48,111 bases of DNA, taken from Alphaproteobacteria bacterium. Lineage in GTDB: Bacteria; Pseudomonadota; Alphaproteobacteria; UBA8366; GCA-2717185. A program made the translations under genes and the position numbers. Below the pieces are notes generated by a model that was not told the DNA's origin, made no database searches, and worked only from the letters and a program-made list of their open reading frames with translations. The stretch spans positions 1-48,111 of the forward strand of contig JAKZTB010000167.1 in assembly GCA_047517345.1 (NCBI GenBank), given 5' to 3'. How positions within the stretch are numbered: the first letter of the stretch is position 1; the number at the start of each line of letters is the position of its first letter. Positions 14,549 to 34,345 of this stretch are shown here, piece after piece.

Positions 14549-15040
14549 TCAGGCGCACCGGTAGAGGTGATATCGTCCGGGCTCGACGTCGGATGGCAAT
14601 GGCACCGGGTTAAGCCCTTCGAACCGATCGAGAGATTGATCGCAAATAATCAATCCACCGCGCCGAACCAGCGGCAGGATTTTCGGTCCGAGCGCGACGA
14701 CATTGCGTTCGGTCGCCGCCGCATCGCCGAATCCGATATCCGCATGCGCCAAGGCGGCCGACGGTCCCAGCTTCTCCGCGGCATCGACGAGCGTATCCTG
14801 CATCGGGCCAAGAAAGAGGTGGGCGGCGTCGGGCCGGCAATCCGGATGCGACACCACTTCGCGGTCGAACACATAAATATCGCGATCGGGAAACAGAGAT
14901 CGAAGATGGTCGTAGGTTCGCCCATTGCCGAGGCCTAATTCGAGTATATGCCCCGGCACGCTACGAAGGGCCTCGGCGGCGGCATTCAAGCAGCTACGTT
15001 GCGCCATCAGACGCTTGATGACCGTATCCAGGCGCGTCAT
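14549..15040 (-). CDS. Small class I SAM-dependent methyltransferase (Methyltransf_17-like)
   Basis: ILELGLGNGRTYDHLR SAM-binding motif, FDR, AHADIG. Confidence 0.8.
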   Translation of the reverse strand: MTRLDTVIKRLMAQRSCLNAAAEALRSVPGHILELGLGNGRTYDHLRSLFPDRDIYVFDREVVSHPDCRPDAAHLFLGPMQDTLVDAAEKLGPSAALAHADIGFGDAAATERNVVALGPKILPLVRRGGLIICDQSLDRFEGLNPVPLPSDVEPGRYHLYRCA

Positions 15041-15054
15041 GTCGCCTTCAGCTT

Positions 15055-15226
15055 GGAGCCTGCCCGAGTAGTGCTTATAGATTGCACCGTGTTCTCAAGG
15101 GGTTGGGCTAGGGGGGTGTCGCGTTGCGGCGGCTTGACGATGCCGCCGGCACCGCCGCCGCACCCACGCCCAACACGCGCGCCTCTCCGGTCGATGCAGC
15201 TCATAAGCATTACTCGGACAGGCTCC
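15055..15226. mobile_element. MITE-like inverted-repeat element, family A copy 1 (172 bp)
   Basis: The left end GGAGCCTGCCCGAGTAGTGCTTAT matches the reverse complement of the right end (GGAGCCTGTCCGAGTAATGCTTAT) at 22/24. The right end is followed by TAG. A homologous copy lies at 46787-46939. Confidence 0.75.
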
Positions 15227-15233
15227 TAGGCGG

Positions 15234-15689
15234 TCAGCCCTGTGCTTCCGCTACCGCCTCGCGAAGGCGGGTCGTGGTTTGTTCCAGCCGGTGCGCCAAC
15301 TCGCGCATGATTTCCACCGCGATCTGCGGAAACTCGATCACTAGATTGAAAAACAAGTCCTTGGTAATGCGCAGCGTCGTGAGCTCCGTTTTGGCCCGCA
15401 CGGTCGCGGTGCGCGGAACGTCGCACAATATGGCGATCTCGCCGACGATCTCGTTCTGTTTCAACGTCGCGACGACCAGCGGCCCGCCGGGCGTATTGAC
15501 GACGATATCCGCCTCGCCGCCGATGATGATATAGGCCGAGTCACCGACGTCGCCCTGTTCGAAAAGAACATCCTGTTCCGCGAAGGTCAGCCGTTCGCTG
15601 GTGAACGCCAACAGCTTCAGCTTCGACGGTTCGATCTTTGCGAACAACGGTATATTCCGCAGCAGTTCTACTTCTTCCTGTAGACCCAT
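15234..15689 (-). CDS. Stand-alone cyclic nucleotide-binding domain protein (no HTH)
   Basis: LLRNIPLFA, LFEQGDVGDSAYIIIGG, and phosphate-binding cassette GEIAILCDVPRTATV. About 151 aa. ATG at 15689 with a GGAGG RBS. Confidence 0.9.
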   Translation of the reverse strand: MGLQEEVELLRNIPLFAKIEPSKLKLLAFTSERLTFAEQDVLFEQGDVGDSAYIIIGGEADIVVNTPGGPLVVATLKQNEIVGEIAILCDVPRTATVRAKTELTTLRITKDLFFNLVIEFPQIAVEIMRELAHRLEQTTTRLREAVAEAQG

Positions 15690-15708: not shown

Positions 15709-18375
15709 TCAACCTGCTTCCAAGAGCGTCTGGAACTCGCCACCCGCCGCGCTCAGTTCATCATACGTGCCGGTTTCTAGAACACGTCCCGACTTCAGGA
15801 CGATAATCTTATCAAAATGTTGTGCGTCCGACACGCGGTTTAATATCCAAACGATGCCTTTGCCTTGATACATTTTTTTGATATTTTCCATGATCCTGCT
15901 CTGGCTGGCCGGATCAAGGGTCGCCGACGCCTCGTTGAAGATCAACAGGTCGGGCTGGCGCAGCAGACTGCGGGCGATCGCGACCTTCTGCCGCTGGCCC
16001 TGCGACAAGCGGGCGCCGCCAATGCCGGCCTGGAAATCAAGACCCGCCAAGATCACGGTTTCGCGCAGTTCGAGGTCGTCGACGACCTCGCCGATAAGCG
16101 CGCCGACCTTGTTTTCCGCTTGCGCTTGTCCGTAGGACAGCTTGCCGAACAATATGTTGTCCTGCAGCGACGCGGCCGCGTTATAGGATTCGGCGTCGAA
16201 AAAAGCGATGCTTTCACGTAGATCATCGGGCAGGCTTTCGGCAAATGTCCGCCGCGCCTCAAGAATACGCTGCATCATTTGATCGTCGATCAAATCGAGT
16301 CGATGCCGCGCGCGGATGATTTTGAATGGCAGGGACGTGAGTTGCAGGCGATCGTCGGCTGTCAACCCGTCCGGTCCCCGAGCCGCACGGCCGAGAATGG
16401 TTTGGAATTCCGGCAAGTCGTCCGATTCGATAAAGCTGAACTGTTCGAAGAATTCGTGACCCGGCGGTAGATCGGCGAAAAGTTCGAGCATCGTTTGCGC
16501 GACTTGTTTGCCCATTTCGAGGAAATCGTCGCTGAGTCCGACTTTGTTGAGAACCTCCTCGATGAAGGGGTGCTCCGCCAAGCGTTCCAGATCAAAGGTT
16601 TTGTCGACTGGCAGTCCGAACAGAATGTTTTCGGCGACCGACGCGTTGGTGTTAAAGGCGTCGGCGTCGAACGGTTCGATGAGCTGCGCCACGGCTGGAT
16701 CGGCAAAGCGTTCGCGTAGCGCCGCCCGCGCCGTCATGATACGGGCCGCGACTTCCGGTTGCTCCTCGGGGTCTATGACACCGCGCAAGCCGAAACGGTA
16801 TACGTCCTCGTCCAAATCCGCGAGTTTCAATATCTCGATCAGCCGCTGGTGAAGCCCGCTCCTGTCTTCCACTCCAGCCTCGTCGAAATCGACCCAATCC
16901 GCGAGGTAATCGTTTTCGGAATTTCCCGTGATCTTCGCCTCCGCCATTTTCGCCTTGTACGCAAATTCTTCGGAGTCTGGATACTCAGCAGGGCGAACGG
17001 GGCGGTGTTTCAACCCGTACAGTATATTGTCGCCGACCGTGAAGGCCTGCAGACTGGCATTCGAACCGACATAGGCGATCCGGCGACCGGTTGTCGACTC
17101 GGGCATTTGCGTAAGATCGACGCCGCCGATCGTGATGGTGCCGGAAGTCTTCTGGACCAGGCGCGCAAGCACCAGTCCCAAATCCGTCTTGCCGCTGCCG
17201 CCGTCGCCGACAATGGCAACATGCGTGTCCACTGGCGCGTCGAACGAGATACCTTCCAGCGACCGCACGCCGTCTTCATCGGCGAGTCCGGCGTTGCTGA
17301 CGATCAAGTCGCCCTTGATCAGCGAGGGACCGTCCTGCTCCGCATGCTGCAACTCTTCCTCCAGCATGCCGTGGGGCGCGAATTGCTCCGCCACCTGTTC
17401 GTATTTGATGCGCACGTCTTCCTTCTGCTGATACCACATCAACAGTTCCTTCCACGGGCTCGCCAGGTCCTTATACGCGGTCAGCACCGCGACCAGCGCG
17501 CCGACGGTAAGGTCGCCGTTAATGACCAGATAGCCGCCGATGGAAAAGAAGAAAAACGGCGTCAGTTTGTCGATGAAATTATTGAGAAACTTAATAAAGA
17601 ACTTGCGCTTATAAATATCGTACCGAATGTCGTAGATCGTCGAGAGCCGGTCGGTGAAGCGGGATAACTCCAAGTGCGCCGCGTCGTTGGCATGGATCTC
17701 GTTTATACCCGTCACCGTCTCGCCGAGATGGTCGGCCAACCGCCGAACGTTCTGCACCCGCTGCTTGCCGAGCGCATTGACCTTCTTTTGCAGCTTCGGA
17801 ATGACATAGCCCTGCACCGGGATGAGGGCGGCCGCAGCGAGCCCGAGCTTCCAATCCTGCAGCAGGATGTAACCGAGAATTAAAATGAGTTGCCCGCCGA
17901 AAAACATCGGATCGGCGAAAGCGATGCCGATGAAGCCGCCGAGCGGTTCGACTTCCGCCGTGATCATGGGGATTAGCTCGCCTTGGCTGATTTTCTTGAA
18001 ATGCGGCGTGGGGAAACGAAGTAGACGCGTATAGAGTTGATAGCGCAGCCGGCGCAACAAACGCTCGCCGAGACGCCCTTTAAAGACACTGATGTAGTAT
18101 TTGAAACCACCGGTGATGAATACCAGTCCCAGGTAGGTAAAGCTCAGAATGAGAAGATAAGTGACCTGACCTACGTCGACCGGGATCTCGAAGCCGAAAA
18201 TCGGCACGTCGAACGGCCCGTCACCGCCACCGGGCTTGATCGCCCTGTTGACGATAATTTTCGGTAAATCAAGCGTTACGAACAGAAATGGATAAAACGC
18301 TAGGATTACGCCAAGCAAATATAGTTGCTGCGATGCGCTGTATCGCAGTATGAACTTGAATATTGATTTTTTCAT
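15709..18375 (-). CDS. ABC exporter-type fused TMD+NBD protein with large NBD insertion and degenerate motifs
   Basis: N-terminal ABC membrane domain, Walker A GDGGSGKT, signature LSQGQRQ, Walker B LLIFNE. About 400 aa separate Walker A from the signature. Confidence 0.85.
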   Translation of the reverse strand: MKKSIFKFILRYSASQQLYLLGVILAFYPFLFVTLDLPKIIVNRAIKPGGGDGPFDVPIFGFEIPVDVGQVTYLLILSFTYLGLVFITGGFKYYISVFKGRLGERLLRRLRYQLYTRLLRFPTPHFKKISQGELIPMITAEVEPLGGFIGIAFADPMFFGGQLILILGYILLQDWKLGLAAAALIPVQGYVIPKLQKKVNALGKQRVQNVRRLADHLGETVTGINEIHANDAAHLELSRFTDRLSTIYDIRYDIYKRKFFIKFLNNFIDKLTPFFFFSIGGYLVINGDLTVGALVAVLTAYKDLASPWKELLMWYQQKEDVRIKYEQVAEQFAPHGMLEEELQHAEQDGPSLIKGDLIVSNAGLADEDGVRSLEGISFDAPVDTHVAIVGDGGSGKTDLGLVLARLVQKTSGTITIGGVDLTQMPESTTGRRIAYVGSNASLQAFTVGDNILYGLKHRPVRPAEYPDSEEFAYKAKMAEAKITGNSENDYLADWVDFDEAGVEDRSGLHQRLIEILKLADLDEDVYRFGLRGVIDPEEQPEVAARIMTARAALRERFADPAVAQLIEPFDADAFNTNASVAENILFGLPVDKTFDLERLAEHPFIEEVLNKVGLSDDFLEMGKQVAQTMLELFADLPPGHEFFEQFSFIESDDLPEFQTILGRAARGPDGLTADDRLQLTSLPFKIIRARHRLDLIDDQMMQRILEARRTFAESLPDDLRESIAFFDAESYNAAASLQDNILFGKLSYGQAQAENKVGALIGEVVDDLELRETVILAGLDFQAGIGGARLSQGQRQKVAIARSLLRQPDLLIFNEASATLDPASQSRIMENIKKMYQGKGIVWILNRVSDAQHFDKIIVLKSGRVLETGTYDELSAAGGEFQTLLEAG

Positions 18376-18452
18376 AAAACCGCGATGCGCCCCTTGGCTC
18401 CCCCGCCATGTAGCTTACCGTAGCCTCGCATTAGCGTAAACTTCTAGAATAC

Positions 18453-18466
18453 ATGCTTAATAGCAT
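18453..18466. promoter_or_regulatory. Short palindrome ATGCT-N4-AGCAT in AT-rich divergent promoter region
   Basis: Perfect 5-bp-arm inverted repeat within the AT-rich 18376-18566 gap between divergent operons. Function unproven. Confidence 0.25.
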
Positions 18467-18566
18467 AGTAATGATGAACGAATTCTACTCTTTTCGCTTT
18501 TAACGTTTCCATGCAATAGTGCGAATTCGTACAAAAGGGGGCATAACCGTGAAGGGGAAGACGGGG

Positions 18567-19787
18567 ATGAGCGGCAGACGCCGCCAACCGCGAGTACTGA
18601 TTTACAGTCACGACTCTTTCGGTCTTGGCCATTTGCGGCGTTGCCGTGCGATCGCCCACGCGATGTGCGAGGACAACGAGGATCTGTCGGTCCTGATCTT
18701 GTCGGGATCGCCGATTATCGGCAGTTTCGATTTTCGCTCCCGCGTCGATTTCGTGCGGGTTCCTGGCGTAATCAAGCTGCGCAACGGCGAATACACGCCC
18801 TTGACCCTCCCCATGGCGATCGAAGACGCGATCGAAATGCGCGCCTCGATCATTCGGCATACCGCGGAAGTTTTCGACCCCGATATTATGATCGTCGACA
18901 AGGAACCGCTTGGCCTGCGCGGCGAACTGACGACGACACTAGAGGTGATGAAGGAACGTGGCGTTCATATCGTGCTCGGGTTGCGCGACGTGCTGGACGA
19001 CCCGGATCTGCTGCTGCCGGAGTGGACACGGAAAAACTCCGTCCCGGCCCTGCAGGAATATTACGATGAGATTTGGATCTATGGCCTGCCGCAAATTTGC
19101 GAGCCGATGGACGGGTTGGACTTGCCGGCGTCGATCAACCGCAAAATAACCTATACTGGCTACCTGCAACGGTTTGCCGACGAAACGGCGACATTGGAAC
19201 TGCCCGCCGCGAGCCGCAACCGACCCTTCATTCTGATCACACCGGGCGGCGGTGGGGACGGCGAAGAGCTGGTCGATTGGGTCTTGCGCGCTTACGAGCA
19301 ATATTCGACCCTGCCGCACCCGTCGCTGATCGTCCTGGGCCCGTTCATGCAGTCCGAACGCCGGACCGAGTTTATCGCGCGCGCCGGCGAGTTGCCCGAT
19401 GTCGAGGCGATCACCTTCGACGCCCATATGGAAAGTCTTATGGCCCGCGCATTGGGAGTGGTCGCAATGGGCGGTTACAATATTTTCTGCGAAATTTTGT
19501 CCTTCGACAAACGCGCGTTGATCGTCCCCCGCACGGTACCGCGGCGCGAACAGCTGATCCGGGCGAGCCGTGCGGAAGAACTCGGTCTCGTCACGATGTT
19601 GCGCGGCGACAACGCGCGGAGCGCCGACACAATGGTCACTGCATTGCGTCACCTGCCGCAACAGCAGCGTCCGTCGGACTCGGTTGTGCCGGGCCTGCTC
19701 GACGGGCTGGAAAACGTGAATATCCTGACCCGCCGCGCGCTGGATCGCCAACCGCGCCCAGCCTTGGCATCGCGTCGGCGCGCCTGA
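18567..19787 (+). CDS. Predicted GT-B glycosyltransferase (COG4671/GT28 C-terminal-like)
   Basis: YSHDSFGLGHLRR, VDKEPLG, GGGGDG, MGGYN, PRREQLIRA motifs. Confidence 0.85.
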   Translation: MSGRRRQPRVLIYSHDSFGLGHLRRCRAIAHAMCEDNEDLSVLILSGSPIIGSFDFRSRVDFVRVPGVIKLRNGEYTPLTLPMAIEDAIEMRASIIRHTAEVFDPDIMIVDKEPLGLRGELTTTLEVMKERGVHIVLGLRDVLDDPDLLLPEWTRKNSVPALQEYYDEIWIYGLPQICEPMDGLDLPASINRKITYTGYLQRFADETATLELPAASRNRPFILITPGGGGDGEELVDWVLRAYEQYSTLPHPSLIVLGPFMQSERRTEFIARAGELPDVEAITFDAHMESLMARALGVVAMGGYNIFCEILSFDKRALIVPRTVPRREQLIRASRAEELGLVTMLRGDNARSADTMVTALRHLPQQQRPSDSVVPGLLDGLENVNILTRRALDRQPRPALASRRRA

Positions 19788-19792
19788 CGATC

Positions 19793-21016
19793 GTGACGGT
19801 CTGCGTCGTTCTGAAGGGCTATCCCCGTCTTTCAGAGACATTCATCGCCCAGGAAATTCTCGCTTTGCAACAACGCGGCATCGCGTTGCACATCGCGTCA
19901 TTACGCCATCCGACGGATAAACAGGTCCATCCGGTTCACCGGGAAATACGCACCGATATCAATTATCTCCCGGAATACCTGCACGACGAACCGGGCCGTG
20001 TCTTCAAGGCGTGGGCGCGGGTACGAAGCAGGCGCGGATATACGGCGGCGCGCGCCGCGTTCCACAGCGACCTCGTGAGGGACTCTACTCGGAACCGCAT
20101 CCGGCGATTCGGACAGGCTTGCGTCCTCGCCGACGAACTGCCGCCCGGTACGAACCGGCTGTACGCCCATTTCCTACACACGCCGGCTTCGGTTGCCCGA
20201 TATGCAGCGCTGATTACCGGGCTGCCCTGGTGTTGTTCGGCACACGCCAAAGACATCTGGACGACGCCACAATGGGAGATCGAGGAGAAACTGGTCGAAC
20301 TCGAGTGGCTGATAACGTGCACGGCGTTCGGCGCGGAATATCTCCGAGGGCTGGCGCCGAACCGCGATGTCGTCTCCTTGCTTTATCATGGGATCGATTT
20401 CGCGCGGTTTCCGGCCCCGCCGAAAAGACCGGTCCATACCGAAAAGCCCATAGCTATACTGTCGGTCGGCCGCGCCGTGGCGAAAAAGGGATATGACGAT
20501 CTATTGGATGCGCTTGCTCTTTTGCCCAAAGAGTTGGATTGGCGGTTTCGCCATATCGGCGGCGGTCCGCTGCTCGGCGCGTTGCGCGACAAGGCGGGCC
20601 GGCTGGGCTTTTCCGGGCGCATCGAGTGGCTCGGCGCGCAATCGCAGGAAACCGTTCTCACCGCACTACGGGACGCGGATATTTTCGCCCTCGCGAGCAA
20701 GACCGCGAGAGACGGGGATCGCGACGGGTTGCCGAACGTTCTGATGGAAGCGCAAAGCCAGGCGCTCGCCGTCGCCGCGACGGACACGGTGGGTATTCCC
20801 GAGCTGATCGTGGACGGCGAGACCGGGCTACTGGCGCCGCCAAACGACCCCGAGGCCTTGTCCGAAGCGCTCGCTCGGCTTATTCGAGACCCTACATTAC
20901 GCCGTCGGCTGGGCGACGCCGGTTTCCAGCGCGTACGTTCTTCATTTGCGCTGGATGTCGGCATCGACAAATTGGCCGCCCGTTTCGGTTCGGTAGAGCA
21001 TCCCGTTGCCGCCTGA
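19793..21016 (+). CDS. Glycosyltransferase family 4
   Basis: KGYPRLSETFIAQE, HFLHTP, SAHAKDIW, VGRAVAKKG, DGLPNVLMEA. The start was reassigned from the ORF-track start at 19073. Confidence 0.88.
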   Translation: MTVCVVLKGYPRLSETFIAQEILALQQRGIALHIASLRHPTDKQVHPVHREIRTDINYLPEYLHDEPGRVFKAWARVRSRRGYTAARAAFHSDLVRDSTRNRIRRFGQACVLADELPPGTNRLYAHFLHTPASVARYAALITGLPWCCSAHAKDIWTTPQWEIEEKLVELEWLITCTAFGAEYLRGLAPNRDVVSLLYHGIDFARFPAPPKRPVHTEKPIAILSVGRAVAKKGYDDLLDALALLPKELDWRFRHIGGGPLLGALRDKAGRLGFSGRIEWLGAQSQETVLTALRDADIFALASKTARDGDRDGLPNVLMEAQSQALAVAATDTVGIPELIVDGETGLLAPPNDPEALSEALARLIRDPTLRRRLGDAGFQRVRSSFALDVGIDKLAARFGSVEHPVAA

Positions 21017-22149
21017 TGCGGATCGCCTTCTATGCCCCTTTGAAATCGCCCGACCACCCAGTGCCCTCCGGCGACCGGCGCGTCGCCCGGCTGCTGCTGT
21101 CGGCGATGCGCGCTGCGGGACACGACGTCCGGGTCGCATCGCGGTTGCGCGCATACGACGATCGCGGCGACGGCCTGCGGCAAGACCAAATCAAAAACCG
21201 CGGCGCCGGATTGGCCGCGCGGTACCTACGTCGTCACGGCGCGAACCCACCCGACCTATGGTTTACCTATCATCTCTATCACAAGGCGCCGGATTGGCTC
21301 GGACCGGCGGTTAGCGACGCGTTTGCGATTCCCTACATCGTCGCCGAAGCCAGCGTCGCACCGAAGCAAGCGAACGGCCCGTGGGCCGAAGGGCATGCAG
21401 CCGTCTGCGCCGCCGTCCGGCAAGCGGCCCGTATAGTGGTGCTCAATCCCGACGATAGGGAATGCCTTACGCCGCTGGTCGGCGACAGCAACACGCTGGT
21501 CACTTTGGTCCCCTTCCTGGATACCCGCACACCACGCGCAGCAGCGGCCAAGCGCCACATTCATCGGGCTCGTTTGGCGGCGCGCTTTGGGCTTCGTGTG
21601 GATTCGCTTTGGATTACCGTAACCGCGATGATGCGCGACGGCGACAAGTTGAAATCGTATCGGCTGCTGGCCGGCGCGAAACGGCAAATGCGCGATCTGC
21701 CGTTGACTTGGCTGGTCGCCGGCGACGGGCCGGTGCGATCCGAGGTTGAAAACGCCCTCGGATCGCAGAACGTCCTTTATCTTGGCGCGCTCGGTCGCGA
21801 CGCAATCGATGCGCTTCATGCCGCCGCCGACATTGCCGTGTGGCCCGCGCTGCGGGAGGCATTCGGCATGGCTTTGCTGGAAGCGCAAGCGACGGGATTG
21901 CCCGTCGTCGCAGGGGCGTCGCCCGGTGTGGCGCAGATCGTCGACGATGGCGAGACCGGACTGTTGACGCCGGTCGGCGACGAAACGATGCTGGCGCACG
22001 CCGTGCGCCGGCTCGTCGAGGATCCGGCCCTGCGCGCGCGCATGAGGATAGCGGCAATGCGAAAATCAGAACGGGCACACGATCTAGACGCAGCGGCACG
22101 GCACATCGATCGCGTCTTGCGCGACGCCCGGGAGGCGCTGGCGGCGTGA
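21016..22149 (+). CDS. Glycosyltransferase family 4
   Basis: MRIAFYAPLKSPDHPVPSGDR, YHLYHKAPDW, EAFGMALLEAQ (E-x7-E). The ATG overlaps the upstream stop (TGATG). Confidence 0.88.
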   Translation: MRIAFYAPLKSPDHPVPSGDRRVARLLLSAMRAAGHDVRVASRLRAYDDRGDGLRQDQIKNRGAGLAARYLRRHGANPPDLWFTYHLYHKAPDWLGPAVSDAFAIPYIVAEASVAPKQANGPWAEGHAAVCAAVRQAARIVVLNPDDRECLTPLVGDSNTLVTLVPFLDTRTPRAAAAKRHIHRARLAARFGLRVDSLWITVTAMMRDGDKLKSYRLLAGAKRQMRDLPLTWLVAGDGPVRSEVENALGSQNVLYLGALGRDAIDALHAAADIAVWPALREAFGMALLEAQATGLPVVAGASPGVAQIVDDGETGLLTPVGDETMLAHAVRRLVEDPALRARMRIAAMRKSERAHDLDAAARHIDRVLRDAREALAA

Positions 22150-22742
22150 CCTTGATCGCCTTGATACGGCACGGCCCGACGGAATGGAACGAAACCGGCA
22201 TCGTCCAAGGCCGGAGCGATATTCCTTTGAGCGAGACCGGCCGCGCGAAGGTCGCGTCCTGGACCAGGCCCGACGAGATTGCGGGGTTCGATTGGGTTTC
22301 GAGTCCGTTGCGCCGGGCGATGGAAACCGCCGAAATACTGACCGGACGGGCGGAACCGACGGATGCGCGGCTGGTCGAGATGGATTGGTCCGAGTGGGAA
22401 GGGATGACGCTGCCGGATCTGCGCGCCCGGCTTGGCAATCTGATGAAAGCCTGGGAGGCCGACGGGCTCGATTTTCGCGCGCCTGGCGGCGAGAGCCCGC
22501 GAGAGGTGCAGGATAGGCTGCGCCCCTTTCTCGCCGAACGGGCTGCGGCAGGGCGCGAAACGGCCGTGGTTTGCCACAAAGGCGTCATCCGCGCGTTGTA
22601 CGCGCTTTCGGTATCCTGGGACATGACCGACAAAGCGCCGGATAAGCTGGATGACGACTGTACTCACCTTTTCGAACTTGCGCCTGACGGCACACCCACG
22701 CCGTACCGGCTGAACGTGCCGCTCACCGCGAAAAACGAATGA
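22146..22742 (+). CDS. Histidine phosphatase (phosphoglycerate mutase-like) family protein
   Basis: LIRHGPTEWN, SSPLRRA.ETA, PGGES, VCHKG motifs. GTGA overlap with the upstream gene. Confidence 0.9.
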   Translation: MTLIALIRHGPTEWNETGIVQGRSDIPLSETGRAKVASWTRPDEIAGFDWVSSPLRRAMETAEILTGRAEPTDARLVEMDWSEWEGMTLPDLRARLGNLMKAWEADGLDFRAPGGESPREVQDRLRPFLAERAAAGRETAVVCHKGVIRALYALSVSWDMTDKAPDKLDDDCTHLFELAPDGTPTPYRLNVPLTAKNE

Positions 22743-27085: not shown

Positions 27086-29004
27086 AATTTTATTTAATAC
27101 TTTTTTCCTTGATTTTCGCCGTCCTGACAGGGCCGGCGCTGGCGATGAAGTTCATCGAAACGCCATCCCTCAAACCGCTGGTGGAAAGCGGAAAGTTGCC
27201 TGCCGTCGAGCAACGCGTACCGGCCGATCCGTACGTCTCCCGTCTCGAGAAAAGCGGCCGCAAGATCGGGCGCCACGGCGGCGTGCTGAACACATTGATG
27301 GCGCGTTCGAAAGACGTCCGGCTGATGGTCGTCTACGGCTATGCGCGCCTGATCAAGTTCAACCGCAAACTGGAGCTCGAACCCGATATCCTGAAGCGCG
27401 TCGACGTCGAAGGGGGCCGCATCTTCACGTTTTATCTGAGACCAGGGCACAAATGGTCGGACGGCAAACCCTTCACGACGGAGGATTTCCGGTACTATTG
27501 GGAAGACGTCGCCAATCACACCATGCTGTCGCCGACCGGACCGCCGGCCACGTTGCGTGTCGACGGCGAGCTCCCGACAGTCACGATCATAGACGACCTC
27601 ACCGTGCGCTACGCGTGGTCGAAACCGAACCCGGCGTTCCTGCCGGCACTGGCGGGCGCGCGACCGTTCTACATCTATCGGCCGGCCCATTATCTGCGCA
27701 AATATCACGCCCGCTACAATAACGAGGCCGAGCTGAACGCAAAGGCCAAGAAGAAAGGCCAACGGAATTGGGCCTCCCTGCACAACAAGTACGACCACCA
27801 GTACAAAAACAAGAACACCAAACTGCCGACCTTGCAGCCTTGGATGAACACCACAGAGGGGCCGGCCGAACGGTTCGTCTTCAAGCGCAACCCGTTCTAC
27901 CACAAGGTCGATACGGAAGGCCGCCAGTTGCCCTACATCGACAGGGTCAATCTGCGCATCGCCAGCGGCAAGATCATTCCTGCCCAGGTCGGCACCGGCC
28001 AGTCCGACTTGCAGGCACGCTATCTGCGCTTCGACAATTTCACCTTCTTGAAGCGGAACGAACAGAAAAGCGGTTACCGCACCTACCTTTGGCGCATCGC
28101 CAAAGGGTCGCACATGACCTTGTTCCCGAACCTGAACGTGAACGATCCGGTTTGGCGAAAACTGATGCGCGACGTCCGCTTCCGCCGCGCGCTATCGCTC
28201 GGCATCGATCGCCACGAACTGAACCAGGTGATCTATTTCGGATTGGCGCTGGAAGCGCAGAACACGGTCCTGCCGGAAAGCCCGCTGTTTCGGAAGGAAT
28301 ACCAGAAGGCATGGACGCAATTCGACCCCGAGACCGCGAACAGATTGCTGGACGCAATGGGCCTCGACAAACGGGACGACCGAAATATTCGCCTGCTGTC
28401 CGACGGTCGGCCGCTCGAGATCATCGTCGAATCGACCGGCGAGAGCACCGAGGAAGCCGACGTGCTGGAACTCGTAACCGATAGCTGGCGTATGATCGGC
28501 GTCAAATTGCACACCAAACCGTCGCAGCGCGAGGTAATGCGCAACCGCATCTATGCCGGCGAGACCGTCATGTCGATATCGTCCGGACTGGAAAACGGCG
28601 TGCCCAGTGCGGACATGGATCCGAAAGGCTTGGCCCCGACCTCCCAGGTACAATACCAATGGCCGAAATGGGGCCAGAAATACGAGACGATCGGGCGAAT
28701 GGGCCAATCTATCGACATGCCTCAACCAAAAAGGCTGATGAATCTGCACAAAAAATGGCTCGCGGCGAGTTCCTCCGATAAACGCGAGAAAATCTGGCAC
28801 GAGATGCTGAAAATAAATGCCGACCAAATCTTCACGATCGGCCTGATTTCCGGCGTGCTGCAGCCGGTCGTCGTGCGCAACACGCTGCGTAACGTCCCCG
28901 AAGAAGGGATCTACAACTGGGACCCCGGCGCCCATTTCGGAATTTACGAGCCGGATTGTTTCTGGTTCTCTGACGCGCCGCCAAACAAAACCGCCAAGAA
29001 TTAG
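27082..29004 (+). CDS. ABC importer substrate-binding protein, family 5
   Basis: Signal peptide ending ALA, LRPGHKWSDGKPFTTED, RNPFYHKVD..G.QLPYID, FRRALSLGIDR. Confidence 0.9.
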   Translation: MKFYLILFSLIFAVLTGPALAMKFIETPSLKPLVESGKLPAVEQRVPADPYVSRLEKSGRKIGRHGGVLNTLMARSKDVRLMVVYGYARLIKFNRKLELEPDILKRVDVEGGRIFTFYLRPGHKWSDGKPFTTEDFRYYWEDVANHTMLSPTGPPATLRVDGELPTVTIIDDLTVRYAWSKPNPAFLPALAGARPFYIYRPAHYLRKYHARYNNEAELNAKAKKKGQRNWASLHNKYDHQYKNKNTKLPTLQPWMNTTEGPAERFVFKRNPFYHKVDTEGRQLPYIDRVNLRIASGKIIPAQVGTGQSDLQARYLRFDNFTFLKRNEQKSGYRTYLWRIAKGSHMTLFPNLNVNDPVWRKLMRDVRFRRALSLGIDRHELNQVIYFGLALEAQNTVLPESPLFRKEYQKAWTQFDPETANRLLDAMGLDKRDDRNIRLLSDGRPLEIIVESTGESTEEADVLELVTDSWRMIGVKLHTKPSQREVMRNRIYAGETVMSISSGLENGVPSADMDPKGLAPTSQVQYQWPKWGQKYETIGRMGQSIDMPQPKRLMNLHKKWLAASSSDKREKIWHEMLKINADQIFTIGLISGVLQPVVVRNTLRNVPEEGIYNWDPGAHFGIYEPDCFWFSDAPPNKTAKN

Positions 29005-29026
29005 AAGACGCGAAGGAACGCTCCAT

Positions 29027-30025
29027 ATGCTCGGCTACGTAACCCGAAGAATATTGGTGATGATCCCGACGCTGGTCGTGATCAGCGCGCTGGTCTTCAT
29101 CATTATTCAGCTGCCACCCGGCGACTACTTTACGACCTATATGAATGAGCTGCAGAGTCAGGGCGAGGCGGTCGATCCGGCAAAGCTGGAATTCATCAAA
29201 CAGCAATACGGTTTCGACAAGCCGATGATCGAACAGTATTTCCTTTGGCTGACCGGCATGCTGCAAGGCGATTTCGGCTATTCGTTCGAATTCAGCCGGC
29301 CCGTATCGGAAGTCGTCGGCGACCGGCTTTGGCTCAGTTTCCTCGTGTCTTTCACGACGATTCTGTTCACCTGGATCGTGTCGTTTCCGATCGGCGTCTA
29401 CTCCGCGGTCCGGCAGTACTCGATCGGCGACTACACCCTGACATTTTTCGGTTTTCTAGGGCTGGCGACGCCGAACTTCCTGCTCGCGCTCGTCTTGCAA
29501 TGGTTGGCTTTTTCCTATTTCGCGACGTCGATCGGCGGATTGATGGACCCAGATTTTATCGACGCAGGCTGGTCGGTCGATAAAATTCTGTCCGTTCTTG
29601 AACATCTCTGGGTGCCGGTCGTTGTCATCGGTACGTCCGGAACCGCCGGCATGATCCGGCGGCTGCGCGCCAATCTGCTGGATGAGCTGCACAAGCAGTA
29701 TGTCGTCACGGCACGCGCGAAAGGGCTGCCCCCCGGCCGCGCCCTGATCAAATATCCGCTGCGCATGGCGCTGAATCCGTTCATCGCCGATATCGGGAAT
29801 CTGCTGCCGGAAGTCATCTCCGGCGCCGCGATCGTGTCCATCGTCCTGTCGTTGCCGACCACCGGCCCGATGCTGCTGAACGCGCTGCAGAGCCAGGACA
29901 TGTACCTTGCGGGGTCTTTCCTGATGTTCCTCGCGACGCTAACGGTGGTCGGCACGCTGATTTCCGACCTTGCCCTTGGCGTGCTCGATCCACGAATCCG
30001 GCTCGGCGGAGGTGCGGCAAAATGA
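29027..30025 (+). CDS. ABC importer permease (OppB-like)
   Basis: LPPGD, GDFGYS, YVVTARAKGL (EAA loop), LDPRIR. Confidence 0.93.
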   Translation: MLGYVTRRILVMIPTLVVISALVFIIIQLPPGDYFTTYMNELQSQGEAVDPAKLEFIKQQYGFDKPMIEQYFLWLTGMLQGDFGYSFEFSRPVSEVVGDRLWLSFLVSFTTILFTWIVSFPIGVYSAVRQYSIGDYTLTFFGFLGLATPNFLLALVLQWLAFSYFATSIGGLMDPDFIDAGWSVDKILSVLEHLWVPVVVIGTSGTAGMIRRLRANLLDELHKQYVVTARAKGLPPGRALIKYPLRMALNPFIADIGNLLPEVISGAAIVSIVLSLPTTGPMLLNALQSQDMYLAGSFLMFLATLTVVGTLISDLALGVLDPRIRLGGGAAK

Positions 30026-31194
30026 GCGAAGCGCCGATGGAGCACTACGTCAACAAGGCGGAGTTCGATCCGAACAGGATCGTCAAGCTGACGCCGGAGC
30101 AGGAACGCTACTACATGGCGTCGCAATGGCAGCTCATGTGGTGGAAGTTCAAGCGGCACCGGCTTGCCGTTGTCAGCGGCGGCTTTTTGCTACTCACCTA
30201 TTTCTCGATCCTGATCAGCGAGACCATTGCGCCCTACGATCTCCACGCGCGGCATACGGACTACCTCTACGCGCCGCCGCAATCGGTGCATCTGTTCCAC
30301 GAAGACGCGTTCGTCGGGCCTTTCGTCTATGGCATGAAGGTCAGCCTGAACATCCGCGAATTGCAGTGGACCTATGCCGAGGACACCTCGAAAATCCACA
30401 AGATCAGGTACTTCTGCGTGGGCGACGATTACAAAGGCGCCGAATATTCCTTCTGGGGCCTTTTCAAGGGCAGCTTCCACCTCGTCTGCCCGGCGGACGG
30501 CGGAGAATTGTTTTTGTTCGGCACCGACCGGCTGGGCCGCGACGTGTTCAGCAGAGTCGTCTACGGCTCCCGGATTTCGCTCACGGTCGGGCTGATCGGC
30601 ATCACGATCAGCTTTCTCATGGGCATCACGATCGGCGGGCTGGCCGGCTATTACGGCGGATTTGTCGACGCGGTGGTACAGCGCGTCATCGAAATCATCC
30701 GGTCGTTCCCGTCTTTGCCCTTGTGGATGGCGCTGTCGGCGATATTGCCGGTGACCTGGAGTCCGATTCTGGTTTTCGCCGGGATCACCGTCATTCTCGG
30801 CATGCTCGACTGGCCAGGCCTCGCGCGCGCCGTCCGGTCCAAACTGTTGGCGCTGCGCGAGGAAGATTTCTGTACCGCGGCGCAGCTGATGGGCGCGAAA
30901 CCGAGCCGTATCATCGGACGTCACCTGATGCCGAGTTTCATGAGCCATCTGATCGCCTCGGCGACCCTGTCCATCCCGAGCATGATCCTCGGCGAGACGG
31001 CGCTGAGTTTCCTGGGCTTGGGGCTGCGGCCGCCGATCACGAGCTGGGGTGTTCTGCTGAATGAAGCGCAGAATATCAATGTGGTCGCGCTGTACCCGTG
31101 GCTGATGATGCCGGTCCTCCCGGTCGTCCTGGTGGTGCTGGCGTTCCAATTCCTGGGCGACGGGCTGCGCGACGCGGCCGACCCCTATAAATAA
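30022..31194 (+). CDS. ABC importer permease (OppC-like)
   Basis: FGTDRLGRD, ETALSFLGLG, SWG, GDGLRDAADP motifs. Confidence 0.93.
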   Translation: MSEAPMEHYVNKAEFDPNRIVKLTPEQERYYMASQWQLMWWKFKRHRLAVVSGGFLLLTYFSILISETIAPYDLHARHTDYLYAPPQSVHLFHEDAFVGPFVYGMKVSLNIRELQWTYAEDTSKIHKIRYFCVGDDYKGAEYSFWGLFKGSFHLVCPADGGELFLFGTDRLGRDVFSRVVYGSRISLTVGLIGITISFLMGITIGGLAGYYGGFVDAVVQRVIEIIRSFPSLPLWMALSAILPVTWSPILVFAGITVILGMLDWPGLARAVRSKLLALREEDFCTAAQLMGAKPSRIIGRHLMPSFMSHLIASATLSIPSMILGETALSFLGLGLRPPITSWGVLLNEAQNINVVALYPWLMMPVLPVVLVVLAFQFLGDGLRDAADPYK

Positions 31195-31203: not shown

Positions 31204-32556
31204 TCAGCGCGACGCGATTACGACAAGATCGACGCCGGCGGAAACGCCTTCCACGGCGACCTCTTGATGGCGTTCTCGCGCCGCCGGTGCGGCATAGTTC
31301 TGCTGCGTTGCGAGATCGAAAGCCTCGCAGGTCGTCAGCGCCCGCGAGCGGGCCGTGCGATTGTGCTTTTCCAGCTTGGCGCACAAATTCACCGGATCGC
31401 CGATCACCGTATATTCGAGCCGCGTGTCGTCGCCGACGGCGCCGAAGATGATCCGTCCGGTGACGACCGCCATGCCGATCGAGATCGGCGGCTTGCCCGC
31501 CGCCGCGCGGTCCGTGTTCCACTTATCCGCGGCGTCGATCAGCGCATCGATTGCACGCATCGCATCCGCGGCATAGCTGTCGCTGGACAGCACCGCGCCA
31601 AAGGTCGCGAGAATACCGTCGCCGAGGAACTTATCGATATTGCCGCCATGTTCCTGAATGATCGGCACCATTCGGGATTCGTATTCGTGCAAAAGCTGGA
31701 TCAGGTTCGACGGATCCATATCGTTCGCCATCTTCGTGAAGCCGCGGATATCGACATTCAGGATTGCCGCTTCGCGGGCCTCGCCCTGACCCGGCCGGAT
31801 GCGTTGATCGGAATGGGTAATTTTCGACGCAATTTCAGGCGAGAAGAAGCGGGCGAGGTCGGCCGCGGCCGCCGCCTCGATAACCGACCGCTCGAGCAGC
31901 CTCCGCGCCCGGACCAGCGCGACCGCTAAAATGCCGGTGACCATCAGGATCGAGATGATCTTGTCGAATTCGGCCCCGAGCAGAATCGTATTCGACGTCA
32001 TATAGGCGACGTAGTCGCGGGTGATCATGTTGTCGTGCGGGTCGATGGAAACCACGTAGAAGACGAGGGCCGACCAACCCAGCGCGGCGCAAACGCCAGC
32101 CAACAATACGAAGCGCGCCTCGAACCGCAATGCGCGCAACGCAATGAAAATAAACACATAAAGAAGAGTCGGCACCTTCAGGTAGAACGATGCGGGCTGA
32201 TCGTACTGAATATGGAAACTCCAGATCAGCATCATCAGAAGCGTGAGATCGGCCGCCACCGACAACGACAGAAACCAGGCTGGAAGGCGGATCCGGTAGG
32301 CGAGCCAGACACGCAGCACCGAGAAAGCGAAATAAGCGCCTAGCGACATGCCGACCGGTGTCAGCCAGGGATCGATGTCCGACGTCTTCGGCGAGATCGC
32401 ATAGAGGATGCCGAACGTCACGACGATACCGAACTGGATCCAAGCGATGAGCCGTTCAGCCTCGTCCTGCTGCTCGGCGATCGCGACGCGCACCCGATCG
32501 GGGACATCGGTATTCGAACCGCTGTTGCTTACGATCTTGGCAATGGTCTTTAACAT
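31204..32556 (-). CDS. Membrane-anchored class III adenylate/guanylate cyclase
   Basis: About 6 TM helices followed by VDIRGFT, IDKFLGDGI and YTVIGDPVNLCAKLE. Confidence 0.9.
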   Translation of the reverse strand: MLKTIAKIVSNSGSNTDVPDRVRVAIAEQQDEAERLIAWIQFGIVVTFGILYAISPKTSDIDPWLTPVGMSLGAYFAFSVLRVWLAYRIRLPAWFLSLSVAADLTLLMMLIWSFHIQYDQPASFYLKVPTLLYVFIFIALRALRFEARFVLLAGVCAALGWSALVFYVVSIDPHDNMITRDYVAYMTSNTILLGAEFDKIISILMVTGILAVALVRARRLLERSVIEAAAAADLARFFSPEIASKITHSDQRIRPGQGEAREAAILNVDIRGFTKMANDMDPSNLIQLLHEYESRMVPIIQEHGGNIDKFLGDGILATFGAVLSSDSYAADAMRAIDALIDAADKWNTDRAAAGKPPISIGMAVVTGRIIFGAVGDDTRLEYTVIGDPVNLCAKLEKHNRTARSRALTTCEAFDLATQQNYAAPAARERHQEVAVEGVSAGVDLVVIASR

Positions 32557-32660
32557 GAATCCGTATTTCGCGCTGGGATTGGGCCGGATCGTTCGCCTAT
32601 TTCATCCTCCGAGACAACCCATAATCGTTTATATAATGCAATATGTCCGTTCAATCCGCG

Positions 32661-33515
32661 TCACCCTTTCTTGAGCCACAGGCTCGATTCGAGAGCGCCT
32701 TCGGGCAGCGCCAAACGATCGATAACGCCGCCTTGCAGCGACGCCGCCATGCGCGTGACGACGAAGTGACTGGCGAACAGCGGCTGCCAGCCACCGCCGG
32801 TCAACAACGCCGCGATGCCGAGTTGTTCGTTGTAGCCGCGCCACGCCCATATCGCCGGGTAATCGTCAGGCAGGAACATGTCATGAATGTGCACGACGAC
32901 GCCTTGGGCAAGGGACGGCAGGACATGATTCAACAGCATGTCCACATCGCTGCCCGGCATCAGAATATGGCTTGAATCGATTGCCAGAATGTCGCCTGCG
33001 GAAAGCGAAGCGAATGCCGTCAGACCGGCCTCCTGCGCCGTCTTGCGGACGATCCGCACACCGGCGAGCCCGTCGAGGGCCGCCCTTGGCGCCGGGTCGA
33101 TCGCGGTAATGTCGGTCGCAAGATCGCCATCCGACACCGCACGGGCAAAGAAGCGCGTCGAGTGCCCGGAACCGACTTCAACGATCCGGGTGGGCTCGAG
33201 CCGACGGACCATCGCATAGGCCGCCGCCCCGTCGAGGCGCGGAAACCAGTCCTGCCCCCAACGGGGCGCCGGCGCCGGATCGTTGCCGATCGCCAGCAGC
33301 GCATTGCGAAACGACTCGATCTCGCCGAGACAGGCGAGAAACGCATCCCTGCTGTCGTCGAACAAAGCTTCGATCGCCGCATAGGCCGGGCGAGTCCCGG
33401 CCGGCGGCACCGCACTGGCATATCGATAGGGAATCAGAAAAGCCCGTTCGTCGAAGCCCAGAACCGTTGGCAAGCCGAAACGAAGGCGCCGTCGCCAAGC
33501 ACGGAAACCGGTCAT
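32661..33515 (-). CDS. Class I SAM-dependent methyltransferase (Methyltransf_24-like)
   Basis: IVEVGSGHST, AIDP, IDSSH, HIHDMFLPDDYP, YNEQ motifs. Confidence 0.85.
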   Translation of the reverse strand: MTGFRAWRRRLRFGLPTVLGFDERAFLIPYRYASAVPPAGTRPAYAAIEALFDDSRDAFLACLGEIESFRNALLAIGNDPAPAPRWGQDWFPRLDGAAAYAMVRRLEPTRIVEVGSGHSTRFFARAVSDGDLATDITAIDPAPRAALDGLAGVRIVRKTAQEAGLTAFASLSAGDILAIDSSHILMPGSDVDMLLNHVLPSLAQGVVVHIHDMFLPDDYPAIWAWRGYNEQLGIAALLTGGGWQPLFASHFVVTRMAASLQGGVIDRLALPEGALESSLWLKKG

Positions 33516-34345
33516 GGCCGAAGGGTCATGCCCTCGCGCGCGACGAGGGTTCCCGGACGCGCCGCTTCGGCCTGTCTCGCGATGTTGTCCATGAAATCAT
33601 CGTCATGCGACGGATCGTGATGAAAAATGACCAAGGTCTTGGCGCCCGCGGCGTCGACGAGGCGTATACCCTCCTGCCAGGTCGAATGTCCGAAACCCTT
33701 GAAACGCGGATATTCGTCGTCGGTGTAGGTCGCGTCGTAAATGACGATATCGGCGCCGGCAATCAGTCCCAGGATGTTGCTGTCCGGCCCGTCCTCGAAA
33801 TGCTCCGTATCCGTCAGATAACAAATCGACCTGCCGTCGAACTCGATCCGATATCCTGTGGCGCGATTCGGATGGTTGAGCGGTGCGGTGCGGATTGTGA
33901 CGCCTTTGCGCGGCGTAACGACTTCGCCACTTTTAAAATCGTTATACGCCACGTCGGCCTGAAAGATTTCCGGCGGGACCGGGAACAACGGTGCGATCAT
34001 CATCTCGATCAAGACGTGCCGCAGCGCGTTTTCCGGCATCAAATGACCGGCCCAAAGATTGATTCGATTGCCCGGTATAAAAAAGGGAACGAAAAAGGGC
34101 AATCCGCAGACATGGTCGAAATGGGTGTGGGTGAAGAATATATCCGTATCCAGCGGCGTTTGCCCGGCCAGCGTGCCGCCTAGCTTGCGCAGGCCGGTAC
34201 CGCCGTCGAAGATCAACCGGCAATCGCCGCAGAGGACCTCCAGGCAGGATGTATTGCCGCCGTAGCGGACCGTCTCGGGACCCGGACAGGCGATACTGCC
34301 GCGAACGCCCCAAAACGTGACGCAAAAATCCTGCCGATCCGCCAT
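33512..34345 (-). CDS. Metallo-beta-lactamase-fold hydrolase (RNase Z/PhnP-like phosphodiesterase branch)
   Basis: FWGVRGS, YGGNTSC, DGGTG, THTHFDH (HxHxDH), NHP, TDTEH, GHST, FHHDP. ATG at 34345. Confidence 0.88.
   Translation of the reverse strand: MADRQDFCVTFWGVRGSIACPGPETVRYGGNTSCLEVLCGDCRLIFDGGTGLRKLGGTLAGQTPLDTDIFFTHTHFDHVCGLPFFVPFFIPGNRINLWAGHLMPENALRHVLIEMMIAPLFPVPPEIFQADVAYNDFKSGEVVTPRKGVTIRTAPLNHPNRATGYRIEFDGRSICYLTDTEHFEDGPDSNILGLIAGADIVIYDATYTDDEYPRFKGFGHSTWQEGIRLVDAAGAKTLVIFHHDPSHDDDFMDNIARQAEAARPGTLVAREGMTLRP

Follow-up and report, generated by a model that had tools for sequence, protein, structure and literature searches.

Positions 14549-34345 of the window, by which we mean the whole 48,111-nt stretch of alphaproteobacterial DNA analysed here, hold 17 genes in three units. 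An eleven-gene operon encodes glycosyltransferases (GTs), further enzymes and an importer of the ATP-binding cassette (ABC) type. Beside it lie an ABC exporter-like gene followed by the gene of a small protein predicted to bind a cyclic nucleotide monophosphate (cNMP), called CNB, and candidate genes for making and degrading such a nucleotide, namely a membrane class III cyclase and a hydrolase of the metallo-β-lactamase fold (MBL). It is practically certain that these genes represent a real conserved module, present in about a third of the sampled alphaproteobacterial genomes, and what sets it apart most is an ABC protein that is coupled to a receptor and has decayed catalytically. Genes were called from the open reading frame listing with inspection of start codons, and domains were assigned by Pfam and NCBIfam scans in which bit scores were set against the curated cut-off, with lenient rescans to E <= 5. 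The 17 genes of a first-pass annotation, made by a model from the letters alone, are all present at, or within a few codons of, the positions it gave. They are as follows.

14549-15040, minus strand: MT17, small S-adenosylmethionine (SAM) methyltransferase; PF12692, 172 bits; last gene of the ABC-CNB-methyltransferase unit
15234-15689, minus strand: CNB, stand-alone cNMP-binding protein of 151 aa, candidate reader; PF00027, 67.3 bits against a cut-off of 27.5
15709-18375, minus strand: ABC exporter-like protein, 888 aa; PF00664, 83 bits, and a split PF00005, 69 bits
18376-18566, no strand: divergent intergenic region between the ABC gene and the GT operon, presumed promoters
18567-19787, plus strand: GT-A, GT-B-fold glycosyltransferase like the GT28 C-terminal domain; PF04101, 22.7 bits; TIGR00661, 35 bits
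19793-21016, plus strand: GT4a glycosyltransferase; PF00534, 111 bits; EpsE-like, 136 bits, below cut-off
21016-22149, plus strand: GT4b glycosyltransferase; PF00534, 92 bits; BshA 67 and MshA 65 bits, below cut-off
22146-22742, plus strand: histidine phosphatase (branch 1); PF00300 (His_Phos_1), 138 bits; RHG at residues 8-10
22739-23896, plus strand: GT-B glycosyltransferase, paralog of GT-A; PF04101, 36 bits
23905-24687, plus strand: protein of 260 aa with the predicted fold of carbohydrate esterase family 4 (CE4), candidate cytoplasmic deacetylase on predicted fold only
24684-25196, plus strand: small membrane protein, 170 aa; hydrophobic stretch at residues 30-57; weak match to the STM3941 family, 18 bits
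25193-27085, plus strand: fused double ATPase of a peptide/opine-type ABC importer; PF00005 twice and oligo_HPY
27082-29004, plus strand: family-5 periplasmic solute-binding protein, 640 aa; PF00496 (SBP_bac_5), 193 bits; signal-peptide-like N-terminus
29027-30025, plus strand: importer permease 1; PF00528 (BPD_transp_1) and PF19300
30022-31194, plus strand: importer permease 2; PF00528 and OppC_N
31204-32556, minus strand: membrane class III nucleotidyl cyclase, 450 aa, candidate writer; PF00211, 39.1 bits against a cut-off of 21.9
32661-33515, minus strand: MT24, SAM methyltransferase between the MBL and cyclase genes; PF13578, 46 bits
33512-34345, minus strand: MBL-fold phosphodiesterase-type hydrolase, 277 aa, candidate eraser; PF12706, 83 bits

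Arrangement and recurrence of the module

The first minus-strand unit reads ABC exporter-like gene, CNB, MT17, and the CNB gene begins 19 nt past the stop of the ABC gene. The operon (18567-31194) diverges from it on the plus strand, and its eleven genes are joined by overlaps of 4 nt or 1 nt or by gaps of 5-22 nt. The second minus-strand unit, in the order MBL, MT24, cyclase, converges on the operon end; the MBL gene overlaps MT24 by 4 nt and 104 nt separate MT24 from the cyclase gene. A scan with Rfam at gathering thresholds found no RNA family in positions 12000-36500.

Recurrence was followed in two sets of genomes. For the order-level set, 20 of the 40 relatives were selected by the length of their contigs, and the window proteins were placed by tblastn on a 20-kb stretch from each. 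The class-level set consists of 301 genomes, in which an ortholog of GT-A was taken as a match with E <= 1e-40; the loci compared are 100 of the 104 non-window GT-A loci, those of genomes G020 and G024 and the weak matches in G111 and G120 (31-33% identity) being left out. All 41 genomes of the order, that of the window included, have GT-B, with its paralog GT-A about 4.2 kb upstream. The 20 order-level loci hold the operon in 19 cases, CNB together with the ABC protein in 12, the cyclase in 6, MT24 in 15 and MBL in 12. Orthologs of GT-A occur in 105 of the 301 class-level genomes, belonging to 86 of 248 genera. Nine core operon genes lie together (within 20 kb) in 53 of the 100 class-level loci, and 54 have a homolog of the small membrane protein, while importer matches are absent from 16 that extend at least 3 kb past the GT-B or CE4-fold gene (for example L139, L140, L141 and L143). 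Sixty of the loci reach the last permease gene, and among these the cyclase is present in 15, MT24 in at least 25 and MBL in at least 22.

Such an arrangement is far above chance, the identical gene order recurring across the order and the class. The first-pass annotation had taken the genes for one coherent unit, as the operon in 19 of 20 order-level loci and GT-A in 105 of 301 genomes confirm, and its expectation that similar gene sets would recur in other alphaproteobacteria is borne out by the 86 genera. It had also named as its test whether the CNB, cyclase and MBL genes accompany the GT/ABC operon elsewhere; all three do occur with it in other genomes. Partial modules were also seen in two genomes scored as lacking GT-A (L171, 434-5888, and L168, 2261-5924): one holds GT4b, the phosphatase, GT-B, the small membrane protein, cyclase and MBL, the other MT17, CNB, the CE4-fold gene and MBL.

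The ABC-like protein and its cNMP-binding partner

The ABC protein carries a PF00664 membrane domain and then a nucleotide-binding domain in one chain. PF00005 matches the latter in two pieces, residues 373-472 and 713-887, split by an insert of about 240 aa. The insert holds two extra copies of the Q-loop and the post-Q-loop segment, so that three copies start near residues 436, 569 and 726, and copies 2 and 3 are identical at 11 of 19 residues. Walker A of the window protein is intact (GDGGSGKT, 390-397); the glutamine of the Q-loop is missing (VGSN), the signature reads LSQGQ, Walker B reads LIFNE with Asp replaced by Asn, and the H-loop reads ILNR with His replaced by Asn. This decay is shared by the family. 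In an alignment of 90 orthologs, Asp is retained at the Walker B position in 10, against Asn in 51 and Ser in 20; the H-loop has His in 41, Asn in 17 and Gln in 12. The signature departs from LSGGQ, and conservation is lacking for the Gln of the Q-loop. The Walker A Lys position holds Lys in 69 and Arg in 16, and the residue that follows it is E or D in 64. With Walker A kept in the window copy nucleotide binding may persist, and in a homodimer both ATP sites would be degenerate. The loss of canonical catalytic residues and the triplicated insert therefore make it unlikely that the protein is an ordinary ATP-driven pump.

The nearest known systems are homodimeric type IV exporters of the MsbA/NdvA/ChvA/HepA/PglK type, which likewise have PF00664 and the nucleotide-binding domain in one polypeptide and whose genes adjoin those of glycosyltransferases. 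The best NCBIfam models are of this kind, all under their cut-offs (602 to 780): MsbA scores 211.9 against 602, with a match over residues 70-473, HepA 188.8 against 725 and a glucan exporter 154.9 against 733. Unlike these exporters, the protein has a split domain with the insert, has not kept its catalytic motifs and has a dedicated cNMP-binding partner. The label of ABC exporter given at first pass thus holds for the MsbA-type membrane domain, whereas the degenerate nucleotide-binding domain and its insert had been missed.

CNB scores above the gathering threshold of PF00027 and carries the phosphate-binding cassette G-E...R-[ST]-A (here GEIAILCDVPRTA), from which cNMP binding is predicted. 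Across 45 sequences R93 and G83 never vary, and conservation of E84, T94 and A95 is at least 90%. RTA closes the cassette in 79 of 89 orthologs and RSA in 2, and in 8 the pattern is unmatched. Small cNMP-binding proteins encoded with an ABC exporter are also known from the bacteriocin-type family TIGR03896, to which CNB aligns over residues 8-137 with 42.7 bits, far under the cut-off of 161. The TIGR03896 proteins accompany peptidase-containing bacteriocin exporters, not glycosyltransferases.

CNB and the ABC protein travel together. Both are present in 86 of the 120 fetched loci (12 of 20 order-level and 74 of 100 class-level), while among the 100 class-level loci CNB stands alone in 2 and the ABC protein in 3. 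In all 86 loci with both, the CNB gene is on the same strand directly behind the ABC gene, with a median gap of about 25 nt and a gap within about 150 nt in 83, and genomes without an ABC gene beside the operon have an ABC ortholog elsewhere. Two genera (loci L154 and L155) encode the two proteins as a fusion: the orthologs, of 1046 and 1062 aa, end in a PF00027 domain that matches stand-alone CNB over its whole length (43% identity; E = 7e-40 and 1e-36). Their occurrence as a fusion strongly indicates that the ABC protein and CNB function together as a unit. Distances among the CNB sequences and among the ABC proteins, taken pairwise from kin genomes, correlate with r = 0.77 and with a partial correlation of 0.63 given GT-A, a value reached by 0 of 999 label permutations; in the same kin genomes this correlation exceeds that of either protein with the transferases. 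It carries little weight, since such genomes share their history. CNB is thus very likely the dedicated partner of the ABC protein, and of the roles proposed at first pass that of a reader behind the ABC protein is the one best sustained, by the 86 loci and the two fusions. A homolog of MT17 adjoins CNB in 50 of the 100 class-level loci. The fusion gene of L154 (3032-9291, same order as the window) is preceded on its strand by a gene for a 744-aa CHASE2 class III cyclase and is flanked by that of a LuxR-type regulator.

Candidate cNMP enzymes and the probable biosynthetic operon

The catalytic domain of the cyclase spans residues 261-400, and a simple hydropathy scan places hydrophobic N-terminal segments between residues 35 and 221. 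All 16 orthologs compared share D269, K309, D313, T383 and N390. We take D269 and D313 to be the metal-binding Asp pair, K309 and T383 the substrate-specifying Lys and Thr of adenylyl-type enzymes, and N390 and K394 the positions of the transition-state Asn-x-x-x-Arg. At E <= 1e-60 an ortholog is present in 57 of 300 class-level genomes. GT-A accompanies it in 50 of the 57, compared with 104 of all 300 genomes, but only 18 of the 57 orthologs lie within 20 kb of GT-A. CNB is present in all 15 class-level loci with the cyclase, the cyclase precedes the importer on the plasmid pRle248d of Rhizobium leguminosarum, and the CHASE2-type cyclase directly upstream of the ABC-CNB fusion in L154 is unrelated to that of the window. 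The cyclase is a recurrent but optional neighbour of the operon, and that it feeds the CNB receptor appears slightly better than an even proposition. One class-level locus (L082, G315:C3 24021-26875) has two tandem cyclase paralogs after the importer, with an MBL gene just past them.

The MBL protein carries the motif THTHFDH, and [T/S]HXHXDH is found in 32 of 35 orthologs. This motif together with PF12706 is given as the signature of the atypical class II cNMP phosphodiesterases Rv1339, CpdA of C. glutamicum and YhfI of B. subtilis in the available text of Thomson et al. 2022 (PMC9293780). The window protein shares with these enzymes PF12706, the motif and a size of about 270 aa. However, [T/S]HXHXDH also fits enzymes of the RNase Z type and is hence non-discriminating. 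By fold, the structural model (pLDDT 90.1) ties among ELAC1, RNase Z, YhfI and PhnP-family enzymes; YhfI (6KNS) is among the three best fold matches and is the best by target-normalised TM-score, 0.79-0.81. PDEase_II is matched only at E >= 0.07, by 13 of 27 family members. The MBL family occurs in 145 of 301 class-level genomes, often in multicopy, and in 94 of the 104 with GT-A. The MBL gene is no more than 3 kb from the cyclase ortholog in at least 33 of 57 genomes, and in G099, G193 and G309 (completeness 97-98%) the pair stands alone, the ABC protein and GT-B not being found there. A role as cNMP phosphodiesterase is plausible as a predicted activity, if at odds a little short of even.

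The four glycosyltransferases of the operon comprise GT-A and GT-B, in which Pfam scans find a weak GT28 C-terminal domain, and the two GT4 enzymes. The histidine phosphatase scores 109 bits on a CobC-like NCBIfam model, under its cut-off of 163. A phosphatase accompanied by a GT4 enzyme usually points to synthesis on a phosphorylated acceptor of the cell, as in the mycothiol, sucrose and glucosylglycerate pathways. An analogy can be drawn to the early steps of mycothiol synthesis, in that GT4b is similar to the BshA and MshA models and is followed by a phosphatase and a deacetylase. Pfam scans of the locus find no polyprenyl-phosphate priming transferase, Wzx, Wzy, OPX or outer-membrane export gene; the lack of a priming transferase, a Wzx-type flippase and an outer-membrane export gene therefore weighs against a classical polysaccharide.

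The 260-aa protein was called a CE4 deacetylase at first pass, although it has no Pfam or NCBIfam match, even at E <= 5, and no sequence relative in the PDB at E <= 0.1. A search at E <= 0.001 returns 4787 homologs, a few of which are named polysaccharide deacetylase by their source. The fold itself holds up: an AlphaFold2 model built from 31 sequences (pLDDT 93.9) has as its best Foldseek matches in the PDB CE4 deacetylases and esterases (5lgc, 5o6y, 7fbw, 2w3z and 3rxz; E from 8e-07, TM 0.5-0.63). D36-D38, H86, H90, R141, H221 and H222 are invariant in the 31 sequences, and the Asp triplet and the HxxxH pair of His, compared as sequence positions and not by superposition, are consistent with a CE4-type metal site. 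The protein is expected to be cytoplasmic because it is without a signal peptide, and may be regarded as a candidate deacetylase of predicted CE4 fold.

The importer consists of an SBP_bac_5 protein with a signal-peptide-like N-terminus, two BPD_transp_1 permeases and an ATPase with oligo_HPY, which is the composition of Opp/Dpp/Yej-type systems. By NCBIfam comparison the ATPase and the solute-binding protein are most similar to importers of peptides, glutathione and microcin C; the ATPase scores 602.5 bits on GsiA (cut-off 1077) and 505.8 on YejF (cut-off 834), both under the cut-off, and the solute-binding protein at most 71 bits on any named importer model.

Around these genes several further features were seen. 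At 17000-20000, where the presumed divergent promoters lie along with the first gene of the operon, the G+C content falls to 0.55-0.57, compared with 0.60-0.65 in the rest of the locus. A gene for a PAS_7/HisKA/HATPase sensor kinase (12871-14544) on the opposite strand ends 4 nt before MT17. Directly upstream of the locus, at 13-12622, lies a hopanoid-type cluster with squalene-hopene cyclase (5423-7429), two squalene/phytoene synthase genes (8777-10734), amine oxidase (7527-9002), a radical SAM protein with DUF3463 (3571-4734), PNP_UDP_1 (4731-5573), LytB (2593-3543) and a GT2 (10667-11854). The genes dnaJ, dnaK, grpE and hrcA (34905-39981, minus strand) come after the MBL gene, and dnaJ also adjoins a shortened module in the class-level locus L057.

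Rhizobial counterparts and proposed function

A plasmid search finds GT-A orthologs on 275 plasmid records, mostly of Rhizobium and Sinorhizobium. Ten or more window proteins have tblastn matches of 38-67% identity clustered on pSymB of Sinorhizobium meliloti and on pRle248d. The latter has, in order, a nucleotide-sugar dehydrogenase, the cyclase, the importer ATPase, the solute-binding protein, two permeases, GT-A, GT4a, GT-B, a 904-aa ABC protein and CNB; identity to the window proteins is 47-67% for the importer, 44-53% for the GTs, 40% for the ABC protein and 57% for CNB. In contrast to the window, the importer precedes the GTs, with which the ABC-CNB pair shares a strand, and the stretch is without GT4b, the phosphatase, the CE4-fold gene, the small membrane protein, MT24 and MBL. 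In R. leguminosarum 3841, as the available text of Wheatley et al. (bioRxiv 10.1101/2020.05.07.082560) gives it, pRL110053-54 are optAD, pRL110056 is a UDP-GlcNAc 6-dehydrogenase and pRL110047, a "permease of ABC exporter", is required in nodules. Eleven consecutive numbers of the region pRL110046-pRL110056 fit the eleven genes of strain 248, a mapping by gene order in another strain, and on this comparison the Rhizobium opt importer is very probably the importer of the present module. The opt operon of R. etli is reportedly the subject of work by Vos et al. in 2007. The opt literature, as searched, holds no link to glycosyltransferases or cNMP.

The pSymB counterpart was compared in the records NC_020560.1 and NC_003078.1. 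It lies at 822-845 kb, spans about 23 kb and about 18 genes, of which the first is a glycosyltransferase and the 14th GT-B, and reads GT4b, CE4-fold gene, MBL, then importer, GT-A, GT4a, GT-B, ABC protein and CNB. By order and count of genes, which fit the names smb21252 and smb21265, this locus is probably the cluster for the phazolicin-protecting polysaccharide (PPP). In the available text of Travin et al. 2023 (PMC10128002), the PPP cluster comprises nine genes between smb21252 and smb21271, insertions in it strongly lower fitness under phazolicin and its disruption sensitises cells; the adenylate cyclase gene cyaA was also depleted in the phazolicin screen, and orthologs of PPP genes are said to have come up in an Agrobacterium pyocyanin screen. 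Seven of the nine PPP genes are published as induced during Myxococcus attack. The same available text of Travin et al. takes the product to be a surface polysaccharide barrier, and proposes there no cNMP receptor, degenerate ABC protein or role of an importer.

Compared with the window, the S. meliloti version adds a DUF3095 gene (434 bits), a PF14099 polysaccharide lyase gene just before the importer and an FkbM methyltransferase gene after CNB; a DUF3095 gene lies within about 5 kb of locus genes in both rhizobial versions (L051, 4337-9649; L052, 4501-5727). On the R. leguminosarum plasmid, cyoABCD (L052, 25056-29286) is found about 2 kb past CNB. Two other S. meliloti loci were considered as counterparts and ruled out: the msbA2 operon, with SMb21188 at pSymB 938,297 against 822-845 kb for the orthologous locus, and the Clr-regulated nodP2-smb21248 cluster, which is another locus, of Wzx/ExoP type with 13 glycosyltransferases. 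The names redA and redB for R. leguminosarum genes are unconfirmed in the searched literature. In the main texts searched these genes are not linked to a cNMP receptor or a degenerate ABC protein, and no paper in the searched literature combines cyclic nucleotide-binding, ABC exporter, glycosyltransferase and adenylate cyclase. The opt genes are little studied. The first-pass annotation, which knew of no characterised pathway with this composition, missed the phenotypes published, in the texts cited above, for the rhizobial counterparts.

The reading that we prefer, with a probability of roughly 0.4, is that of a three-part module composed of a glycoconjugate assembly line, a cNMP-controlled ABC-like protein and a local supply of cNMP, with an importer in addition. 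Under it, the two GT28-like and two GT4 glycosyltransferases, the histidine phosphatase and the CE4-fold deacetylase would build a small amino-sugar glycoconjugate on a phosphorylated acceptor, which could be soluble or lipid-anchored. The MsbA-fold ABC-like homodimer would move or release this product across the inner membrane under the control of cNMP-bound CNB, acting either as the separate 151-aa protein or as the fused C-terminal domain. The level of the messenger would be set by the membrane class III cyclase and probably also by the co-transcribed MBL protein as an atypical class II phosphodiesterase. The YejA/Opp-type importer of the same operon might then take the compound, or a fragment of it, back up; a full cycle of making, export and re-import remains tentative, and we would not count on it as a whole.

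A number of observations weigh against this reading. The product, the ligand and the direction of transport are all assigned from protein families, the degenerate ATPase domain argues against active export, and an importer in a biosynthetic operon may supply substrate rather than recapture product. The cyclase domain is divergent and of low score (39 bits), its K394 is invariant (16 of 16) where the transition-state Arg is canonical and is K in all 13 pattern-matching members of 20 orthologs, and no more than 6 of 20 order-level loci and 15 of 60 class-level loci have the gene next to the operon. The counts throughout were obtained in genomes that are related to one another, by tblastn with coverage cut-offs of 40-50% and in stretches of up to 20 kb that often end before MBL. 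The part of writer which the first-pass annotation gave to the cyclase is hence favoured by the 50 of 57 genomes that also have GT-A and weakened by the optional placement and the change from Arg to Lys. Its eraser fares similarly, with an MBL gene within 3 kb of the cyclase in at least 33 of 57 genomes on one side and, on the other, the family's occurrence without GT-A and its nearness to RNase Z.

The observations on MBL lead to an alternative in which cNMP control of the ABC-like protein through CNB is real but MBL and MT24 are outside the circuit. MBL would then act on RNA or on a phosphodiester of the glycoconjugate, and would accompany the operon in a tailoring or salvage role or simply as its neighbour. 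The nearest solved sequence relatives of MBL are RNase Z and ELAC1 (E = 1.8e-12), while yeast PDE1 (E 0.033) and Apyc1 (0.057) are marginal and YhfI is not among the 60 PDB matches listed. Of the 196 genomes that lack GT-A, 50 have a member of the family, some of them with genomes as small as 1.1 to 1.7 Mb, and in 13 of the 20 such genomes examined no locus gene lies within 5 kb of it. MBL also stands beside the operon without the cyclase in 16 class-level loci and without a nearby CNB or ABC protein in L035, L048, L071, L097 and L128, and in S. meliloti it adjoins GT4b and the CE4-fold gene, about 20 kb from CNB; the occurrence without the cyclase and the S. meliloti placement fit a role in sugar chemistry equally well. 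In the window MBL is translationally coupled to MT24, and a methyltransferase between MBL and cyclase has no obvious place in a cNMP circuit. Yet the closeness to the cyclase in at least 33 of 57 genomes, including three in which the ABC protein and GT-B were not found, the combination of PF12706 and [T/S]HXHXDH that marks atypical class II phosphodiesterases, and YhfI as the best fold match by target-normalised TM-score (0.79-0.81) speak for a place in the circuit. We regard this alternative as on balance unlikely.

Two further alternatives concern the direction of flow and the function of the ABC-like protein, and both seem improbable. The importer may bring in a compound from outside or from the periplasm, such as a peptide, muropeptide or plant glycoside, which the enzymes modify and the ABC-like protein exports, the whole forming a processing or detoxifying loop. 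In its favour, the importer genes and the enzyme genes form a single operon with translational coupling, the closest similarity of the ATPase and the solute-binding protein is to peptide, glutathione and microcin C importers, and the Pfam scan finds no priming transferase or acceptor-synthesis gene in the locus. Also, according to the available text of Travin et al. (PMC10128002), mutation of the probable counterpart in S. meliloti causes hypersensitivity to a peptide antibiotic. However, the 16 of 100 class-level loci without importer matches show that enzymes and importer are separable, and an imported ligand of whatever kind would be hypothetical. The pairing of a phosphatase with GT4 enzymes, as said, usually marks synthesis on a phosphorylated cellular acceptor. 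Just as improbably, the ABC-like protein may translocate nothing and serve as a membrane-bound, cNMP-responsive regulator or scaffold which, like regulatory ABC proteins, switches the glycosyltransferases or the importer. Degenerate Walker B, H-loop, signature and Q-loop motifs across 90 orthologs, the large conserved insert in the helical subdomain and the obligatory pairing or fusion with CNB would all suit such a regulator. Against it, the membrane domain keeps the full exporter fold (PF00664, 83 bits; MsbA model, 212 bits), Walker A is intact in the window copy with Lys in 69 and Arg in 16 of the 90 orthologs, and the probable R. leguminosarum ortholog is required in nodules as an "ABC exporter permease", in that source an annotation only.

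A bolder form of the preferred reading is a cNMP-gated translocon, in which the exporter-fold protein, without ATP hydrolysis, would open for its cargo when cAMP or cGMP binds CNB, the cyclase and MBL would set the signal, and the cargo would be an amino-sugar glycoconjugate cycling between cytoplasm and periplasm and shaping envelope permeability, antibiotic tolerance and nodule life. Taken in all its parts this is rather unlikely. Its logic has a counterpart in secretion gated by cyclic di-GMP (c-di-GMP), where the receptors BcsA PilZ, Alg44, PelD and PgaCD gate the secretion of polysaccharides: in both schemes a dedicated nucleotide receptor is tied to a membrane translocation step and the messenger synthase is encoded nearby. 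Unlike the c-di-GMP systems, the present module would use cAMP or cGMP, a CNB-domain receptor and a degenerate ABC-fold translocon, and it has no synthase-type GT2 and an importer in its operon.

The module is widespread, and its rhizobial versions came up in screens for antibiotic tolerance and nodule fitness, as far as the available texts of those studies go. If the proposed reading is true, cAMP and cGMP would, like c-di-GMP, be messengers with a direct effect on the machinery of glycan export, a function would be found for a large family of ABC proteins whose ATPase sites have decayed, and Alphaproteobacteria would have a candidate cNMP phosphodiesterase. Should the ABC-like protein prove to be a cNMP-gated translocon, it would be the first bacterial ABC-fold protein, and the first instance of glycan export, under the direct control of a cNMP.

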